DNA of 64,000 bases from Verrucomicrobiia bacterium (GCA_963664225.1 OY760937.1:768001-832000), one strand, 5' to 3'; shown: positions 2,742-64,000, counted from the first letter of the stretch. Numbers and translations are program-made. The notes: generated by a model not told the origin, from the letters alone.

Positions 2742-3119
2742 ATCAACTAACTTTGACTTAGTGCCTTATTGGGGTCACGTCGTCACAATAAGAGCAGCGC
2801 TGGGGCTGTCCATGGGGGGATTCACCCCCTGGCGGCCCCGTCCCAGTGTGGCTGAAAATGGCGATGTGAACGGGTTGCCAGCAGGGGAAGGCCGATGGGT
2901 TTCAATGTGGGAACAGGCTATTTTGTGGGCATTCAGGGGCTGAAACGTGCTTTCAGCCCGTGTCGTGTTTTTGTCCGGTTAACCTTGGACCATTGACCCA
3001 AGCGCAGGGCAAAGTTCTCCTGGAGGAAGGCTGGCGTTTCAAAGCACGGATGGATGACAGGAATCTTCTGGCAACCCCTCCCTCCAGCTCCCTTGTATCT
3101 GATTTTCCATCTATTCTTG

Positions 3120-11998: not shown

Positions 11999-12174
11999 TA
12001 AACGGATACGGATGGGAATTCCGAAGTATTTTGTTATGCGAATGATTGGATGGTTTGGGAGGTGGCCGCCGCGCGGGGTGGCTGGGGGGCAGAATTTTAC
12101 ATGGATAGTCAGGATGGACAGGATTTTTGACCACGGATATGACGGATGGCACGGATGGGGAAATTAATTTCGAG
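11944..12174 (+). repeat. Cluster of modular 9-nt-period repeats
   Basis: CGCAGAT, CGCTAAT, CAGGAT and CACGGAT triplet modules, also at 13697-14004, 15285-15535, 33320-33397 and 59805-59867. Confidence 0.75.
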
Positions 12175-12245
12175 ACCGTAAGCAGGAGATTGTTTTACAT
12201 CTTTATTCAACTTTCTGAAGAAATTTGTTGCGCGGCCGGCGGAAT

Positions 12246-13607: not shown

Positions 13608-13791
13608 AAGTTCGCGGCTTATATATCACCATGAATGCATTTCAATCAAGCGTATTACCAATCGGGGGCGGGACATGGATGTGGCGAAGAGGAATTAACA
13701 TGGATAGTCAGGATGGACAGGATTGGGAAATGGCGGAGGGGACAACCACAGGCAGGGAGTGGAGAATAACGGGTTATAAACATGGATGGAC

Positions 13792-14004
13792 AGGATAAAC
13801 AGGATGGGGAGTGGATAAGCCAGGGAAATCCGCAGATGCCGTAGAGCGACGCAGATGGGATAGGGAGAACCGCTAATTGGCACTGATAACCGCTAATACG
13901 GATGGGGAGGAAATGGATCATTGACCAGCCAACATCGAACGTGCAATCGGACGGAGAATTTAACCACATAGAACGGGTGGATCACAGAGAAGGAATCGGA
14001 AGAA
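13792..14004 (+). repeat. 213-bp direct repeat, copy 1 (abuts IS3 left end)
   Basis: Matches 15285-15497 with 3 substitutions. Confidence 0.9.
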
Positions 14005-15284: not shown

Positions 15285-15497
15285 AGGATAAACAGGATGG
15301 GGAGTGGATAAGCCAGGGAAATCCGCAGATGCCGAAGAGCGACGCAGATGGGATAGGGAGAACCGCTAATTGGCACTGATAAACGCTAATACGGATGGGG
15401 AGGAAATGGATCATTGACCAGCCAACATCGAACGTCCAATCGGACGGAGAATTTAACCACATAGAACGGGTGGATCACAGAGAAGGAATCGGAAGAA
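15285..15497 (+). repeat. 213-bp direct repeat, copy 2 (abuts IS3 right end)
   Basis: Matches 13792-14004. Confidence 0.9.
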
Positions 15498-15590
15498 TAA
15501 TCCACATGGATGGGAAGGATGGACAGGATGGGGAAATGGGAAGTATGGATAATTGAGGGGCGGTTTGAAGTGGAAAAAGAGAGCCGTATT

Positions 15591-33148: not shown

Positions 33149-33451
33149 GGTCGATTTCGTCCAGGGGACATGCCTTGGGACCCAGCATCGTTGAGTTGGG
33201 ACTTGGGGCGGCCTGGATTCAATGATTGAAGTATTACGCCGGTTAAAGAGGTGATGCAAAAATATTCGTCAGGGAGTGTAATCGAGTAGTGCATGACAAG
33301 ACGTCTGGCGAAGAGAATTCTACATGGATATTCAGGATGGACAGGATTTTTAACCACGGAAATGACGGATGGCACGGATAGGGAAATTATTTCCGAGATG
33401 GTATTAAAGGCGGTCGTTCAGAGCGCCGATGGATGGGAAAAGTTTCTGGCT

Positions 33452-35711: not shown

Positions 35712-35873
35712 CCCGAAGTCGGAAATAGGAACGGCCCATCTGACGCAATCATTCGGCCATCCATGGTTTGAAACCGGCTGTGGAGTATTGATTTGATACA
35801 CCCTCGCCGATTGCAAATCATGGCTGCCTCAAAGCATTGCATCATCCAAGCCCTTCTTATTTCGGATTTCGGG
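35712..35873. mobile_element. 162-bp palindromic MITE with IS1380-like TIRs, copy 1
   Basis: TIRs CCCGAAGTCGGAAATAG / TTATTTCGGATTTCGGG; 5-bp TSD TTAAA (35707-35711; 35874+37850-37853, split by intron). Confidence 0.88.
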
Positions 35874-35874
35874 T

Positions 35875-37849
35875 GTGCGCCAGTGAAATTGGTAGCCTCG
35901 TGGGTGAAAGTCCCGCCGGTCGAATTAGACGGTTCACGACCGAAATGCAGCGTCCGGGACGAGGCCGTGAGGCCGAACCACAAGCGGGACGCTGAAAGAA
36001 CTGTCGGGTCGTAACGAAAGTAAACCTCATCAAATGAGCTCCGAAACCGAAATAACCGGTAAGCCGAGCCGCTACCCGAACGGCGAAGGCAGAAACGCGG
36101 CGTCATCAAATCGTCAAATGGGCGCTGTTGATTCCGGCGGAGTCAGCGAGGGCGACACGACAGGAAGGGAAACCAAGGTAAGCTGGGAGATCTCTGGAGG
36201 CGGGGCGATAAAGCCTCAACCGCCGGTGCAAGGAGGAACACCCTCCGAGGCCGCACGGGCAGCCAGAGAAGTCGGAGTCTTCCATAGTAGCGAAGAAGCT
36301 GGGGCGACCAAAACCCCGGCGGAGCCAAGGGAAGGCACTTGGATCGAAGCGAATCAAAACAGCGAGGGACAGGGAGATGGCCTTGAGGGAGTGGAAACAC
36401 TTTTTCAACGGATAACAACCCCGATAAAAGTTCAAAAGCTGCAGCGAGCGCTATATTGCAAAGCCAAGGCTGAGCCGAAGTATCGGTTTTACAGCCTCTA
36501 CGGAGAACTGCTGCGGAAGGACGTGCTGGAAACGGCAATGGCCTCCGTGGCGCACAACAATGGCGCGGCTGGGATCGACGGGCAGACATGCGACGTCTAT
36601 CTTGCCAGCGACGAAGCCTGGGACCAATGGCGGAACCAACTGCTGGAGGAGTTACGCACGAAGAAGTATCGGCCAAGCCCGGTGAAGCGTGTGTATATAC
36701 CAAAAGGAGACGGGAAGCTGCGACCCCTGGGCATCCCGACAGTGAAAGACCGGGTGGTGCAGACAGCGGTGGTGATTGTATTGCTGCCGATTCTGGAAGC
36801 CGATAGTCATCCGAACAGTTACGCCTATCATCCCAAACGCAATGCCCACCAAGCAATGGAGGCGATCAAGAAGGCTACGCTGACAGGACGCGTCGAAGTT
36901 ATAGACGCGGACTTAAGCGGGTATTTTGACAGCATTCCCCACAGGCGTTTGTTGCGCATAGTGGCCAAGCGGGTCAGCGATGGAACAATTCTCAAGCTGA
37001 TCGCAGGATGGCTGCGCGCGCCCGTGAATGAACCGCAAAGCGACACAGGGAAAGGCGGGACAAAGGGGGGGCAAGGTCAGAATCGACGGGGGACTCCGCA
37101 AGGCGGGGTTGTATCGCCGATTTTAGCCAATGCATACCTCAACCAGTTGGATTGGGAAGTCAACGAACGCTGCGAACTCAAACCCGTGATGGTGAGATAC
37201 GCGGATGATTTCGTGATACTCGGACAGCCGGGGCAGGGACGGGAACTGATGGAACGACTGGAACGATGGCTGAAGCAACGCGAGTTAGTGCTCAACGAGA
37301 AGAAGACCCGCTTGGTGGACCTCCGCCAGGATGGCATCAAATTCTTGGGATTCGCGCTAACAATGCGACAGGGGAAGGGGAAATGGAAATATCCGCATGT
37401 GGAACCCCATCCCAAGAGCCAGAAGAAGTTTCGAGACGGGATTCGGGAGAAACTCAACCGAAGCACGCTATGGCGTGATATCGGAGAGGTGATTCCCGAG
37501 CTCAACAAGAAACTCAAAGGTTGGAAGGGTTACTTTCACTACGGGAACAGCACCAAGGTGATGGGCCAGATGAACGAATACGTCAGCAGCAAGTTACAAC
37601 GATGGTTGTGGCGCAAACACGGATGTAGTCGGGCGCAATGGTCCACATACCCCAAGGAGGATCTCTATGAGCGTTATGGTTTATACCAAATGCCGGAATA
37701 TGCGGCATGGAAACGATGACGTCGAAGCGATGCAACGTATGATCCCCGGAGAGCCGGATGCGGGAAAACCGCCTGTCCGGTTCGATGAGGGGCGAAATGC
37801 GACGGTCATTGGCCACGGCCATTCAATCCGTCCATTTCGCCTACTCTAC
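35875..37849 (+). mobile_element. Group II intron, copy 1
   Basis: 5' GTGCG, domain V GAGCCGGATGCGGGAAAACCGCCTGTCCGGTTC (37751-37783), 3' CTACTCTAC; ends confirmed by the second copy. Confidence 0.95.
36391..37719 (+). CDS. ltrA: Group II intron reverse transcriptase/maturase, no En domain (frame open from 36034; start uncertain)
   Basis: RPLGIPTVKDRVVQ, GTPQGG, RYADD, domain X GWKGYF. Confidence 0.93.
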   Translation: METLFQRITTPIKVQKLQRALYCKAKAEPKYRFYSLYGELLRKDVLETAMASVAHNNGAAGIDGQTCDVYLASDEAWDQWRNQLLEELRTKKYRPSPVKRVYIPKGDGKLRPLGIPTVKDRVVQTAVVIVLLPILEADSHPNSYAYHPKRNAHQAMEAIKKATLTGRVEVIDADLSGYFDSIPHRRLLRIVAKRVSDGTILKLIAGWLRAPVNEPQSDTGKGGTKGGQGQNRRGTPQGGVVSPILANAYLNQLDWEVNERCELKPVMVRYADDFVILGQPGQGRELMERLERWLKQRELVLNEKKTRLVDLRQDGIKFLGFALTMRQGKGKWKYPHVEPHPKSQKKFRDGIREKLNRSTLWRDIGEVIPELNKKLKGWKGYFHYGNSTKVMGQMNEYVSSKLQRWLWRKHGCSRAQWSTYPKEDLYERYGLYQMPEYAAWKR

Positions 37850-37887
37850 TAAAAACGTTTTGCGGTGCATGGCTGTTCATTCGTAGG

Positions 37888-59733: not shown

Positions 59734-60086
59734 AAGGGGATAGTTTTAGGGAAGCGACCGTTCATGTCAATAAGACACGGAAAAAATGGGAAGTGAAGGT
59801 TATAAACATGGATGGAAAGGATGGGGAAATGGGGAGAATGGATAAGGGCAGAATGGATAATGGACAACCGGGGTCCCGTCCTAAAATAGGTTGTCACTAA
59901 TGAGACAACAAAACAGTGTTCGAAGGGTGGGGATACGGTACAGTGAGTCGTTTAAAATGGCCGTGGTTCGGGAGCTGGAAGAGGGCGAAATGTCCTTTGA
60001 GCCCGAAATCCGAAATAGGAACGGCCCATCTGACGCAATCATTTGGCCATCCATGGTTTGAAACCGGCTGTGGAGTATTGATTTAA

Positions 60087-61618
60087 CCCGAACTCCGAAG
60101 TTAGGTCGGTTTTTTTAGGGAACCGCTAACCCCTCCGGTCATATTCCGCCCCCTCCGAAAGCTTGCCGGGCTTCCGGTGGCACCAACTTCGGCGACGCGC
60201 TTTTCAACCAGTTCAACGTGGTTTCTATCAACGGCTTGTGTTTAGCCAGTCCACCCCAGGCCGCCGAGAGCCTCACCACCACATCACGCCCCATCGTTCC
60301 CAAGAGGGCTCCCGCCAGAAAAACCGTCGTCCGCAATGTTCCTGGCTGGCGGTATGGCTGGGTTGGAGTGGTCTGATGCTGGTAAAGACTCAGCAGGTTG
60401 AATGTGAAGAGCACCGCCAGAAACGCCGACTCGGTGGCGAAAAACGATTTCAGGCAAAAACCGTTGGCAGCCAGATCATTCTTCAGCTCCTCGATCCGCT
60501 GCTCGATGGTGGCCCTTCCGTTGTAGTCCCTCCACAGTTCCAGCGCGCCTTCACTTCGGTTGGTGACGCACACTCGAAAGGTGTAACCGGGCACATCAAT
60601 GAGCTTGCGACCCAGAGCCTCCTTGTCTTCCCTGATCCGCTCCCGCAGCACCACGAATCGCCGGGCAGTGGACCAGCCAAAGAGTTGGGCTCTAAACTCC
60701 CCCACGGCATGATTTTCATCGATGGCTTTCCAGTTCTGGATTCCCACGCAATGGTATTTGATCGTGGAGGTCATGCGCGCCACCACAATGTAGGTTAATT
60801 TGCGCATTTCCAAAAACGTCACTAACGCCTCATCGAAGAACCCGCTGTCGGCACGCACGCACCGAATCCACGTTCCCTCGGGCAACAGGGCCAATGCCTC
60901 CTGCAAAAACGGCACCACCCCGCGCGCGGCTCCGGTGTTGCCGCTGCGCAACCATCCATGCAGGATAAACGGCGCTTCGGCCAGCACCGCCAGGAGCGGA
61001 TGATGGCTCTTGCGCCCCTTGCGGCGTGGATTGTACCCCTTGGCAGCCCCCTCCTGCGAACCCTCCCGGCAGAACACGGTCGAATCCAGATCCAACGAGA
61101 AGCCTGCCTTGGGGCAGGCCAGCAGATTGAGCAGCCATCGCCAGAGCGGTCGCCAGAACGCTTCGATGTGGCCCTGGCCAAAGTGCAGGAAGAAGTTGCG
61201 GATGGTGTCATCGCCCGGGAAACGTTCCATCCCCAGCATGGCGTGCAGAACATGATCGGCACGCAGCCACTGACAGTGGGCAAAGCGGCGTGCTCCCGCC
61301 ACCACAGATACGATAAAACTGGTCAGCGTATGGGCTAGAGGAATGGCATTAGGTGAAGTGGGCGCGGCAAACGGCAAGCACCGCTGCACCGCCTGCGCAT
61401 AGCCGATCTGACCCAAAAAGGTTATGAATGAAGCCAGACCGCCGAAGGGGGTTATGGCCTTGGGAGTCTCATCCAGATAGAGCTTGGCTTGGCCGAAAAG
61501 AGCGCTAATTTCGACTGGGGTCGTTTTGTGCGAGTCTGAAGCGGGCTTGTTTAGCATCAAACCCTATTGCCTCAGAAGGTTGCGCATTGCGACCTCTTTT
61601 TCTATCTCGGAGTTCGGG
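60087..61618 (-). mobile_element. IS1380-family insertion sequence
   Basis: TIRs start CCCGAACTCCGA; TSD TTTAA (60082-60086; 61619+63595-63598). Confidence 0.9.
60139..61560 (-). CDS. IS1380-family transposase
   Basis: LDLDSTV, GYNP, RADSGF, YNGRATIEQRIEELK. Confidence 0.92.
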   Translation of the reverse strand: MMLNKPASDSHKTTPVEISALFGQAKLYLDETPKAITPFGGLASFITFLGQIGYAQAVQRCLPFAAPTSPNAIPLAHTLTSFIVSVVAGARRFAHCQWLRADHVLHAMLGMERFPGDDTIRNFFLHFGQGHIEAFWRPLWRWLLNLLACPKAGFSLDLDSTVFCREGSQEGAAKGYNPRRKGRKSHHPLLAVLAEAPFILHGWLRSGNTGAARGVVPFLQEALALLPEGTWIRCVRADSGFFDEALVTFLEMRKLTYIVVARMTSTIKYHCVGIQNWKAIDENHAVGEFRAQLFGWSTARRFVVLRERIREDKEALGRKLIDVPGYTFRVCVTNRSEGALELWRDYNGRATIEQRIEELKNDLAANGFCLKSFFATESAFLAVLFTFNLLSLYQHQTTPTQPYRQPGTLRTTVFLAGALLGTMGRDVVVRLSAAWGGLAKHKPLIETTLNWLKSASPKLVPPEARQAFGGGGI

Positions 61619-61619
61619 T

Positions 61620-63594
61620 GTGCGCCAGTGAAATTGGTAGCCTCGTGGGTGAAAGTCCCGCCGGTCGAATTAGACGGTTCACGACCGAAATGCAGCGTCC
61701 GGGACGAGGCCGTGAGGCCGAACCACAAGCGGGACGCTGAAAGAACTGTCGGGTCGTAACGAAAGTAAACCTCATCAAATGAGCTCCGAAACCGAAATAA
61801 CCGGTAAGCCGAGCCGCTACCCGAACGGCGAAGGCAGAAACGCGGCGTCATCAAATCGTCAAATGGGCGCTGTTGATTCCGGCGGAGTCAGCGAGGGCGA
61901 CACGACAGGAAGGGAAACCAAGGTAAGCTGGGAGATCTCTGGAGGCGGGGCGATAAAGCCTCAACCGCCGGTGCAAGGAGGAACACCCTCCGAGGCCGCA
62001 CGGGCAGCCAGAGAAGTCGGAGTCTTCCATAGTAGCGAAGAAGCTGGGGCGACCAAAACCCCGGCGGAGCCAAGGGAAGGCACTTGGATCGAAGCGAATC
62101 AAAACAGCGAGGGACAGGGAGATGGCCTTGAGGGAGTGGAAACACTTTTTCAACGGATAACAACCCCGATAAAAGTTCAAAAGCTGCAGCGAGCGCTATA
62201 TTGCAAAGCCAAGGCTGAGCCGAAGTATCGGTTTTACAGCCTCTACGGAGAACTGCTGCGGAAGGACGTGCTGGAAACGGCAATGGCCTCCGTGGCGCAC
62301 AACAATGGCGCGGCTGGGATCGACGGGCAGACATGCGACGTCTATCTTGCCAGCGACGAAGCCTGGGACCAATGGCGGAACCAACTGCTGGAGGAGTTAC
62401 GCACGAAGAAGTATCGGCCAAGCCCGGTGAAGCGTGTGTATATACCAAAAGGAGACGGGAAGCTGCGACCCCTGGGCATCCCGACAGTGAAAGACCGGGT
62501 GGTGCAGACAGCGGTGGTGATTGTATTGCTGCCGATTCTGGAAGCCGATAGTCATCCGAACAGTTACGCCTATCATCCCAAACGCAATGCCCACCAAGCA
62601 ATGGAGGCGATCAAGAAGGCTACGCTGACAGGACGCGTCGAAGTTATAGACGCGGACTTAAGCGGGTATTTTGACAGCATTCCCCACAGGCGTTTGTTGC
62701 GCATAGTGGCCAAGCGGGTCAGCGATGGAACAATTCTCAAGCTGATCGCAGGATGGCTGCGCGCGCCCGTGAATGAACCGCAAAGCGACACAGGGAAAGG
62801 CGGGACAAAGGGGGGGCAAGGTCAGAATCGACGGGGGACTCCGCAAGGCGGGGTTGTATCGCCGATTTTAGCCAATGCATACCTCAACCAGTTGGATTGG
62901 GAAGTCAACGAACGCTGCGAACTCAAACCCGTGATGGTGAGATACGCGGATGATTTCGTGATACTCGGACAGCCGGGGCAGGGACGGGAACTGATGGAAC
63001 GACTGGAACGATGGCTGAAGCAACGCGAGTTAGTGCTCAACGAGAAGAAGACCCGCTTGGTGGACCTCCGCCAGGATGGCATCAAATTCTTGGGATTCGC
63101 GCTAACAATGCGACAGGGGAAGGGGAAATGGAAATATCCGCATGTGGAACCCCATCCCAAGAGCCAGAAGAAGTTTCGAGACGGGATTCGGGAGAAACTC
63201 AACCGAAGCACGCTATGGCGTGATATCGGAGAGGTGATTCCCGAGCTCAACAAGAAACTCAAAGGTTGGAAGGGTTACTTTCACTACGGGAACAGCACCA
63301 AGGTGATGGGCCAGATGAACGAATACGTCAGCAGCAAGTTACAACGATGGTTGTGGCGCAAACACGGATGTAGTCGGGCGCAATGGTCCACATACCCCAA
63401 GGAGGATCTCTATGAGCGTTATGGTTTATACCAAATGCCGGAATATGCGGCATGGAAACGATGACGTCGAAGCGATGCAACGTATGATCCCCGGAGAGCC
63501 GGATGCGGGAAAACCGCCTGTCCGGTTCGATGAGGGGCGAAATGCGACGGTCATTGGCCACGGCCATTCAATCCGTCCATTTCGCCTACTCTAC
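61620..63594 (+). mobile_element. Group II intron, copy 2
   Basis: Same ends and identical ORF translations as copy 1 (offset 25745). Confidence 0.95.
62136..63464 (+). CDS. ltrA: Group II intron reverse transcriptase/maturase (frame open from 61779)
   Basis: Translation identical to copy 1. Confidence 0.93.
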   Translation: METLFQRITTPIKVQKLQRALYCKAKAEPKYRFYSLYGELLRKDVLETAMASVAHNNGAAGIDGQTCDVYLASDEAWDQWRNQLLEELRTKKYRPSPVKRVYIPKGDGKLRPLGIPTVKDRVVQTAVVIVLLPILEADSHPNSYAYHPKRNAHQAMEAIKKATLTGRVEVIDADLSGYFDSIPHRRLLRIVAKRVSDGTILKLIAGWLRAPVNEPQSDTGKGGTKGGQGQNRRGTPQGGVVSPILANAYLNQLDWEVNERCELKPVMVRYADDFVILGQPGQGRELMERLERWLKQRELVLNEKKTRLVDLRQDGIKFLGFALTMRQGKGKWKYPHVEPHPKSQKKFRDGIREKLNRSTLWRDIGEVIPELNKKLKGWKGYFHYGNSTKVMGQMNEYVSSKLQRWLWRKHGCSRAQWSTYPKEDLYERYGLYQMPEYAAWKR

Positions 63595-64000
63595 TTAATA
63601 CACCTTCGCCGATTGCAAATCATGGCTGTCTCAAAGCATTGCATCGTCTTGACCATTCTTATTTCGGATTTCGGGTTGAGGCGATGCGGCGAAAGTACGG
63701 CATAAAGGGCACGGGCACCGTCCAAAAGTGGGCTCGCAAGTACGGCAGGGGCGATTTAGGAAAGGTCATACGCGTGGAAACACCTAAAGAATTCAATGAA
63801 CGGGATCAAATGAAGAAGCGAATCAAGGCTTTGGAGAAAGCGTTGGCCGATGCGCACATCGATCTGGCGATCGAGCGTGCCACCATCCAAGTGGCCTGCG
63901 AACGGGCGGGGATTAAGGATGTGGCGGAGTTCAAAAAAAAAGTGGCTGGGAAATAGCCCATTGTGCGGTCAGGGGAGGTTCGGCGGATCAGGAGGTGCCG

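Follow-up and report, generated by a model that had tools for sequence, protein, structure and literature searches.

What places a group II intron exactly one base outside the end of a transposon, and does so twice within a short piece of chromosome? The question is raised by a stretch of 64,000 nucleotides from a Verrucomicrobiia bacterium (GCA_963664225.1 OY760937.1:768001-832000; hereafter the window), in which one copy of an intron follows a miniature inverted-repeat transposable element (MITE) and a second copy follows an insertion sequence (IS) of the IS1380 family. Our answer, to which we assign a probability of roughly 85%, is that an active intron with a IIB-like layout, comprising two exon-binding sites (EBS1 and EBS2) and a contact to the first base of the 3´ exon (+1), homes to junctions made by transposition, by means of RNA-DNA pairing and priming at the replication fork.

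By its boundaries, ribozyme domains, reverse transcriptase (RT)/maturase and EBS1, the element is a bacterial group II intron with a ribozyme plus a protein encoded by the intron (IEP). The two window copies, 1975 nt each, are identical in sequence, and both match the Rfam models RF02005 (domains D1-D4; 54.9 bits, cut-off 49) and RF00029 (D5-D6; 49.3 bits, cut-off 40). The ends follow the group II pattern of 5´ GUGYG and 3´ AY, GTGCG standing at 35875 and CTAC at 37849. In the genome, a single contig of 5.78 Mb, there are 19 full-length copies, 100% identical over 1975 nt; the same boundaries recur in all 19 and in four relatives, introns with 77-78% nucleotide identity found in other genomes. 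From the 19 identical copies, the intron is predicted to be capable of self-splicing and retrohoming. A search of 30 related genomes, one of them from the same genus and 93% complete, did not reveal it, although drafts may lose repeats.

The IEP lies in domain IV and carries RVT_1 (1e-34) and GIIM (7e-14) domains, together with a TIGR04416 match of 357 bits (cut-off 300). Pfam gives only RVT_1 and GIIM in its 442 residues, with no endonuclease (D/En, HNH) domain, and the protein ends 25 residues beyond the GIIM match. Our best guess for its start is the GTG at 36391. The same frame is open for a further 119 codons upstream of the first RT-like residues (36034-36390), which takes it across domains I-III; the RT start has no ATG in frame close by, the one at 36377 being out of frame.

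The hosts of the two window copies are related to each other. Members of the IS1380 family, as defined by ISfinder, have terminal inverted repeats (TIRs) starting with CC and make duplications of 4-5 bp. The IS in the window, which is nested in a second MITE spanning 60002-63675, encodes a DDE transposase at equivalog level, has ends of the form CCCGAAC.../...GTTCGGG, and is flanked by 5-bp duplications at five of five copies. The MITE is a 162-bp, non-coding element present as 16 simple copies and three with an inserted IS; beyond the one next to intron copy 1, 15 further 162-bp copies have 5-bp duplications. Its repeat tip, CCCGAAATCCGA, is similar to the IS tip, CCCGAACTCCGA, and TTWAA duplications are common to both, so that the MITE is probably mobilised by the IS1380-family transposase. 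The MITE centre (TTTAATAC) is itself a recurrent landing spot, at 60082-60086 in the window and also at about 264,640 and 2.98 Mb in the genome: in two MITEs an IS1380 copy sits there, forming the same 1699-bp composite with unlike outer duplications, and in a third a different IS (1.86 kb, six copies) occupies the same central spot. A sigma-70-like promoter in the MITE facing the intron (35793-35821) was considered and set aside as evidence, one weak site being found and shuffles giving 0.3.

At every paired element with matching duplications, the duplication starts with TT; most are TTAAA or TTTAA, and TTTAT and TTGAG occur once each. A related IS (86% identity), found in a different genus of the family, is flanked by TTNAA at seven of eight ends and by CTTAA at the remaining one. 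The transposase thus prefers targets that start with TT, and so supplies a T on each side of the intron insertion point (-1 and +1), for TTWAA on both strands. The sequence-only reading that preceded this work had proposed that a homing site arises whenever a family member transposes next to a T; the creation of sites by transposition stands, and the T is no chance neighbour but part of what the transposase selects, so that a site should arise on each strand at nearly every transposition.

The junctions are uniform. All 19 genome copies have the 5´ flank ...TCGGA[T/G]TTCGGG-T and the 3´ flank T[A/T]AA. In the window, copy 1 is read as MITE end, T 35874, intron and TAAA, with TTAAA on the left side of the MITE, and copy 2 as IS end, T 61619, intron and TTAA, with TTTAA at 60082-60086 to the left of the IS. 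Thirteen copies lie at MITE ends and four at IS ends, left and right ends both being used, and in these 17 the 5-bp duplication (TTAAA or TTTAA) is cut after its first T, one base beyond the terminal repeat. The remaining two lie at orphan tips: 12-15 nt of repeat, then TTAAA, and no partner for the repeat within 4 kb. Two claims made for the window copies, that each follows a TIR of the same family and that each splits the 5-bp target duplication after its first base, 1 nt outside the repeat, are therefore borne out by the junctions; across the genome, a tip of such a repeat is present at 19 of 19 copies and the split duplication at the 17 beside a MITE or IS, and copies elsewhere, which would have spoken against the proposal, were not seen. 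The orphan tips (12 nt at genome position 2,063,462, minus strand, and 15 nt at 3,974,269, plus strand; loci L012 and L005) may be what is left of deleted MITEs, or sites that only look like repeat tips, and one of them breaks another repeat family, sister copies of which continue differently.

When the intron was removed in silico, the 5-bp duplication was exactly restored in 15 of the 16 cases (among 19) in which both ends of the element had been recognised by script. Window copy 1 belongs to a 17th element, left unpaired by the script owing to a differing left repeat, in which TTAAA is seen by eye on both sides. At each site the transposon therefore came first and the intron second. No element carries two introns.

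That the intron always adjoins an element could also mean that it was copied along with the transposon, for instance by one-ended IS1380-type transposition, and some IS1380-family members do mobilise adjacent DNA. We consider this passenger origin very improbable. No two copies have the same 3´ exon, and each 3´ exon completes the duplication of its own element; moreover, one MITE::IS composite exists in two copies whose introns sit at opposite ends of the IS. Together these facts argue that the intron did not travel with its neighbour. Furthermore, the use of left or right ends follows chromosomal position and not the orientation of the element, and in the other-genus genome with the 86%-identical IS all eight ends are empty and no intron was found.

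What the intron recognises at these junctions is clearest for EBS1. The heptamer ACCCGAA, which had been proposed to be exposed in a stem-loop and complementary to TTCGGGT, indeed falls in a terminal loop of 9 nt, both in the Rfam consensus structure and in the free-energy fold, and the 7-bp pairing with IBS1, the corresponding intron-binding site, is possible in 19 of 19 copies. In each of the three close relatives for which a flank is available, the loop co-varies with the last seven bases of the 5´ exon (ACCUGAA with TTCAGGT, UCCUGAA with TTCAGGA, and CCACGGA with TCCGTGG), the outcome that had been asked of the proposed covariation check. The relatives' introns start with GTGCG after T, A or G, the -1 base co-varying with the first base of EBS1; this co-variation fixes the exon boundary, including the one-base offset from the repeat, and indicates that the -1 T is paired. 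Among more distant RF02005 introns, this loop is complementary to the final 4-5 bases of the exon in all four for which a script could locate the start (of ten loci tried). On the 3´ side, each of the four related lineages for which a 3´ junction is available has T at +1, as do 17 of 17 identical 3´ junctions in the genome of one relative; this fits a conserved third contact that reads +1 through a putative RNA partner.

The Rfam consensus fold places the candidate for EBS2, CCGAAATAA, in an asymmetric internal loop of 13 nt. This segment is complementary at nine of nine positions to the right end of the MITE and at 5-8 of nine to the other ends, leaving a 2-nt linker to IBS1. In the alignment over window positions 36026-36146 the relatives are mostly invariant, and the EBS1 and EBS2 loops hold most of the variable columns; when five related introns are compared, two patches are hypervariable, and the EBS2 loop is one of them. 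In a distant family member, UACAC of the same loop can pair with exon positions -10 to -6. It is the placement in a hypervariable, single-stranded loop, and the analogous pairing of UACAC, that make this EBS2 credible.

Genome-wide occupancy is consistent with these contacts and adds a strand rule. There are 602 TTCGGGT sites, of which 148 have T at +1 and lie on what we call the permissive strand. Among those with at least six of nine EBS2 matches, 19 of 28 are occupied, a class that contains all 19 occupied sites; none of the 120 permissive sites with five or fewer matches is occupied, and the other strand has 26 good sites, all of them empty. Introns are oriented plus at 0.05-0.95 and 2.99-5.61 Mb and minus at 1.66-2.19 Mb, the six minus copies being contiguous among the 19 on the circle (chance 19/27132). 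The dnaA gene lies at 2,990,068-2,991,396, and GC skew and the strand bias of long open reading frames flip twice, near 1.3 Mb and somewhere from about 2.9 to 3.7 Mb. With an origin that we infer to lie near dnaA, and a terminus placed in the same manner, 18 of 19 copies fit insertion into the lagging-strand template. A like split is seen in another complete genome, in which eight RF02005 matches are plus at 0.08-1.26 Mb and minus at 1.70-2.91 Mb of 2.95 Mb. The chromosome as a whole has a net G excess on the plus strand.

A mechanism that would account for these observations runs as follows. Excised intron RNA with bound IEP would reverse-splice into DNA, recognising its site chiefly through pairing between RNA and DNA. 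EBS1 would pair with TTCGGG, the last six repeat bases, and the first T of the target duplication; past a 2-nt linker, CCGAAATAA would pair with up to nine bases deeper in the repeat; and a third contact would read the second T of the duplication at +1. Since the IS1380-family element and the MITE insert at TTWAA, each transposition would build one such site at each end, on opposite strands. Because the IEP has no endonuclease, insertion would be completed only in the strand that templates lagging-strand synthesis, where the end of the nascent DNA may prime reverse transcription. Each element would then receive at most one intron, always at its replication-downstream end.

Several results weigh against this reading. 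Contigs from four public runs contain no joints across the intron and are uninformative on splicing or empty-site polymorphism. Nine good permissive-strand sites are empty. One copy (2,986,270, plus), 3.8 kb from dnaA, is ambiguous as to strand, and the permissive-strand blocks were drawn from the intron orientations and then compared with dnaA and the skew. Replichores placed in this way would differ greatly in length, at about 1.7 and 4.1 Mb, and GC skew is near zero, not negative, at 1.3-3.7 Mb. As to EBS2, a search of domain I of three close relatives against their own exons found only EBS1, and the relatives for which no EBS2 pairing was found include one with 16 copies at a single target. 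Of 2000 dinucleotide shuffles, 96 gave a 9-mer complement somewhere in domain I; in the free-energy fold, part of CCGAAATAA is taken up in a small hairpin that is not conserved in relatives; and in the site census the EBS2 match count is confounded with being a terminal repeat.

These last points feed a variant in which specificity comes from EBS1, the +1 contact and IEP contacts with distal exon bases, including WAA at +2 to +4, the match to CCGAAATAA being fortuitous or dispensable. In keeping with it, no such pairing was found in close relatives, occupied sites tolerate as few as 6-7 of nine matches, and permissive sites lacking WAA at +2 to +4 are empty in three of three cases, compared with 5 of 24 for those that have it; according to PMC4615759, poor EBS2 pairing is likewise no bar to the intron RmInt2, which makes use of protein contacts. 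It is harder to reconcile with a 9/9 complement placed exactly in a single-stranded, hypervariable internal loop of the family consensus, or with the pairing of UACAC from the same loop in a distant member, and we regard it as rather improbable, if the likeliest of the alternatives. The earlier proposal that CCGAAATAA serves as EBS2 thus holds for position, complementarity and the Rfam internal loop, and finds no echo in the pairings of close relatives or in the free-energy fold, which partly pairs the segment; a role for it is probable, and less firmly indicated than that of EBS1.

A further possibility concerns the shape of the target. Class C (IIC) introns insert after terminators or attC hairpins by reading the stem-loop, and have a short EBS1 and no EBS2. 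They resemble the present intron in being intergenic and endonuclease-less and in lying at the 3´ foot of an inverted repeat. In a comparable manner, the IEP might read the foot of the MITE hairpin in single-stranded DNA, with pairing as fine-tuning. The 162-bp MITE has arms with 77% complementarity along 44 nt, and 13 of 19 sites are at its outer foot; related introns also sit in repeats: a relative with 77% identity has 16 of 16 5´ junctions at the end of a palindromic module of about 76 nt built of CCACGGAT-type 9-mers, and another RF02005 intron is found in ATCCGTG-type repeats. We nevertheless find targeting by shape unlikely, since four of 19 sites are at IS ends whose repeats are 1.5 kb apart, two have no partner repeat within 4 kb, EBS1 pairs over a full 7 bp and co-varies, and the AGC of D5 and the EBS2-type loop in domain I are unlike class C.

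The 7-bp EBS1, the EBS2-type loop and the 6 of 19 sites without a hairpin partner likewise rule out membership of class C. The class D (IIB3) C-terminal signature is given as LX3AX3PXLF[V/A]HW in PMC4615759, and the IEP, which ends in ...RWLWRKHGCSRAQWSTYPKEDLYERYGLYQMPEYAAWKR, does not contain it, so that class D was rejected as well. The next-nearest IEP proteins (40-52% identity) come from introns of Rfam RF02003, no usable class signature was obtained from PMC3552965, and we leave the class between E, F or another.

Preferring pairing-directed homing to transposition-made junctions, we can ask how tightly the intron is bound to its hosts. The cut one base outside the repeat spares the transposon, which would remain able to make further sites. 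An earlier suggestion, that the intron tracks a transposon family without breaking it, holds structurally, as the repeat and the transposase gene are intact; continued mobility of the transposon is plausible on these grounds. A more far-reaching version, which we advance tentatively and rate at somewhat less than even odds, is that the intron is an obligate follower of this transposon family: its homing site, absent from the transposon itself and from untouched target DNA, would exist only in the junction that transposition makes, as the repeat tip joined to the TT of the favoured TTWAA duplication; the transposon would be spared, replication direction would limit each element to one intron, and the outer foot of inverted-repeat elements may be a speciality of the RF02005-type lineage.

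The relatives offer some perspective. Besides those at palindromic modules and ATCCGTG-type repeats, a third RF02005 intron lies in a repeated coding motif; that relatives are found at differing repeats suggests that the lineage retargets to whatever is multi-copy, possibly with a preference for the outer foot of inverted repeats. A tblastn search of the flanks of three loci (L020, L022 and L023) with the window transposase for a transposase near the relatives gave nothing meaningful, with one match at E = 3.6. In genome G041 (loci L199-L207), the RF02005-type intron directly follows a repeated coding-like motif, ...TACGAYAAYAAYGGNA or ...TTCGACAACATAGGCA, in eight of nine junctions, the nine having been found by script among ten loci, and several copies are clustered 2-6 kb apart.

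Other sequences of this lineage were noted in passing. The genome that contains the window has a second RF02005-type family of about 1.97 kb, with four copies at 99-100% identity (L168:1458-3234; genome 1,676,532 onward), whose shared sequence starts ...GGAAAGCGCC, not GTGCG, and whose orientations break the strand rule of the main intron. At locus L051:936-3117, a D5-D6 match (936-1010), an RF02003-type domain I (1041-1180) and a strong RF02005 match (2889-3117) occur in succession, which suggests tandem or nested introns of two families. The window also contains intergenic repeats of GGATGG/CACGGAT-like 8-9-mers (12082-12180, 13686-13815, 15492-15539, 33305-33403 and 59785-59841); in two other genomes, related introns home to palindromic CCACGGAT-type modules similar to these. 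The features of the two window loci are collected in Table 1.

Table 1. Positions of the intron, its functional segments and its host elements, counted from the first nucleotide of the window.
Feature	Position	Strand	Remarks
MITE left target duplication, TTAAA	35707-35711		Equals T 35874 + TAAA 37850-37853 after intron removal
MITE with CCCGAA.../...TTCGGG terminal inverted repeats	35712-35873		162 bp; right end ...TATTTCGGATTTCGGG
First T of right duplication, exon position -1	35874	+	Pairs with A of EBS1; -1 co-varies in relatives
Group II intron, copy 1	35875-37849	+	1975 nt, GTGCG...CTAC; from Rfam matches and genome comparison
Proposed EBS2, CCGAAATAA	36047-36055	+	Internal loop 36044-36056; complements exon -18 to -10; intron positions 173-181
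EBS1, ACCCGAA	36074-36080	+	9-nt terminal loop 36072-36080; complements exon -7 to -1 (TTCGGGT); intron positions 200-206
RT/maturase (IEP)	36391-37719	+	442 aa if the start is GTG 36391; frame open from 36034; YADD
Domains V and VI, copy 1	37749-37849	+	RF00029; AGC triad in GAGCCGG..., D6-consensus CUA near 3´ end
Rest of split duplication, TAAA	37850-37853	+	T 37850 is 3´ exon position +1
Outer MITE, left part	60002-60086		Duplication TTGAG 59997-60001; broken by IS at TTTAA 60082-60086
IS1380-family insertion sequence	60087-61618		1532 bp, 5 identical genome copies; right end ...TATCTCGGAGTTCGGG
IS1380-family transposase gene	60139-61560	-	473 aa; NF033539 227 bits, cut-off 180; PF13701 2e-27
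Group II intron, copy 2	61620-63594	+	After T 61619, before TTAA 63595-63598
Outer MITE, right part	63599-63675		End ...CGGATTTCGGG + TTGAG is an empty site on the permissive strand

Whether such a system had been described was left unsure in the sequence-only reading. Its principle is in print. RmInt2 of S. meliloti GR4 is reported to home into both inverted repeats of ISRm17, as shown experimentally (PMC4615759), and its authors point out that, with both repeats as targets, twice as many sites are available and one of them always lies on the lagging-strand template (PMC4615759; PMC5894124); a 2-nt IBS2-IBS1 linker and tolerance of EBS2 mismatches are also described (PMC4615759; PMC5894124). 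The present intron is like RmInt2, as there portrayed, in having an endonuclease-less RT/maturase, in targeting both inverted repeats of an IS, in being present in several copies per genome, and in its 2-nt linker, its tolerance of EBS2 mismatches and a U-A type +1 pairing. It differs in where it cuts, since RmInt2 inserts within the repeats, whereas the present intron enters one base outside, inside the duplication, and leaves the repeat whole. The lineages also differ, RmInt2 belonging to class D and the present intron lacking the class D motif and matching RF02005, as do the hosts, here an IS1380-family element and its MITE derivatives, and the copy number, 19 compared with seven for RmInt2. 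The class D intron RmInt1, which colonises ISRm2011-2, is another parallel: it is endonuclease-less, exploits a multi-copy IS and shows a bias to the lagging-strand template (as cited in PMC4615759), but it inserts in the IS body and blocks the spread of the IS (PMC5894124), not at the junction of repeat and flank. In the literature searched, limited to CC-licensed PMC papers and bioRxiv, no report of a group II intron site outside the repeat was found. The novelty is accordingly modest: the homing site reaches across the repeat tip into the duplication, and the transposon is left structurally intact.

The conceptual step beyond RmInt2 and ISRm17 is thus small. What the genome adds is an unusually complete natural record of how an endonuclease-less group II intron chooses its targets, with 19 of 28 good sites occupied compared with 0 of 26 on the other strand, and a target assembled from the end of a transposon and that transposon's preferred insertion sequence. 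The resulting target rule, from -18 to +4, is ready-made for a lineage so far unused in gene targeting. The reported cases of introns in insertion sequences interrupt the IS, in contrast to the intron described here. If the transposon stays mobile, this intron would be a retroelement dependent on a second mobile element that it leaves in working order.

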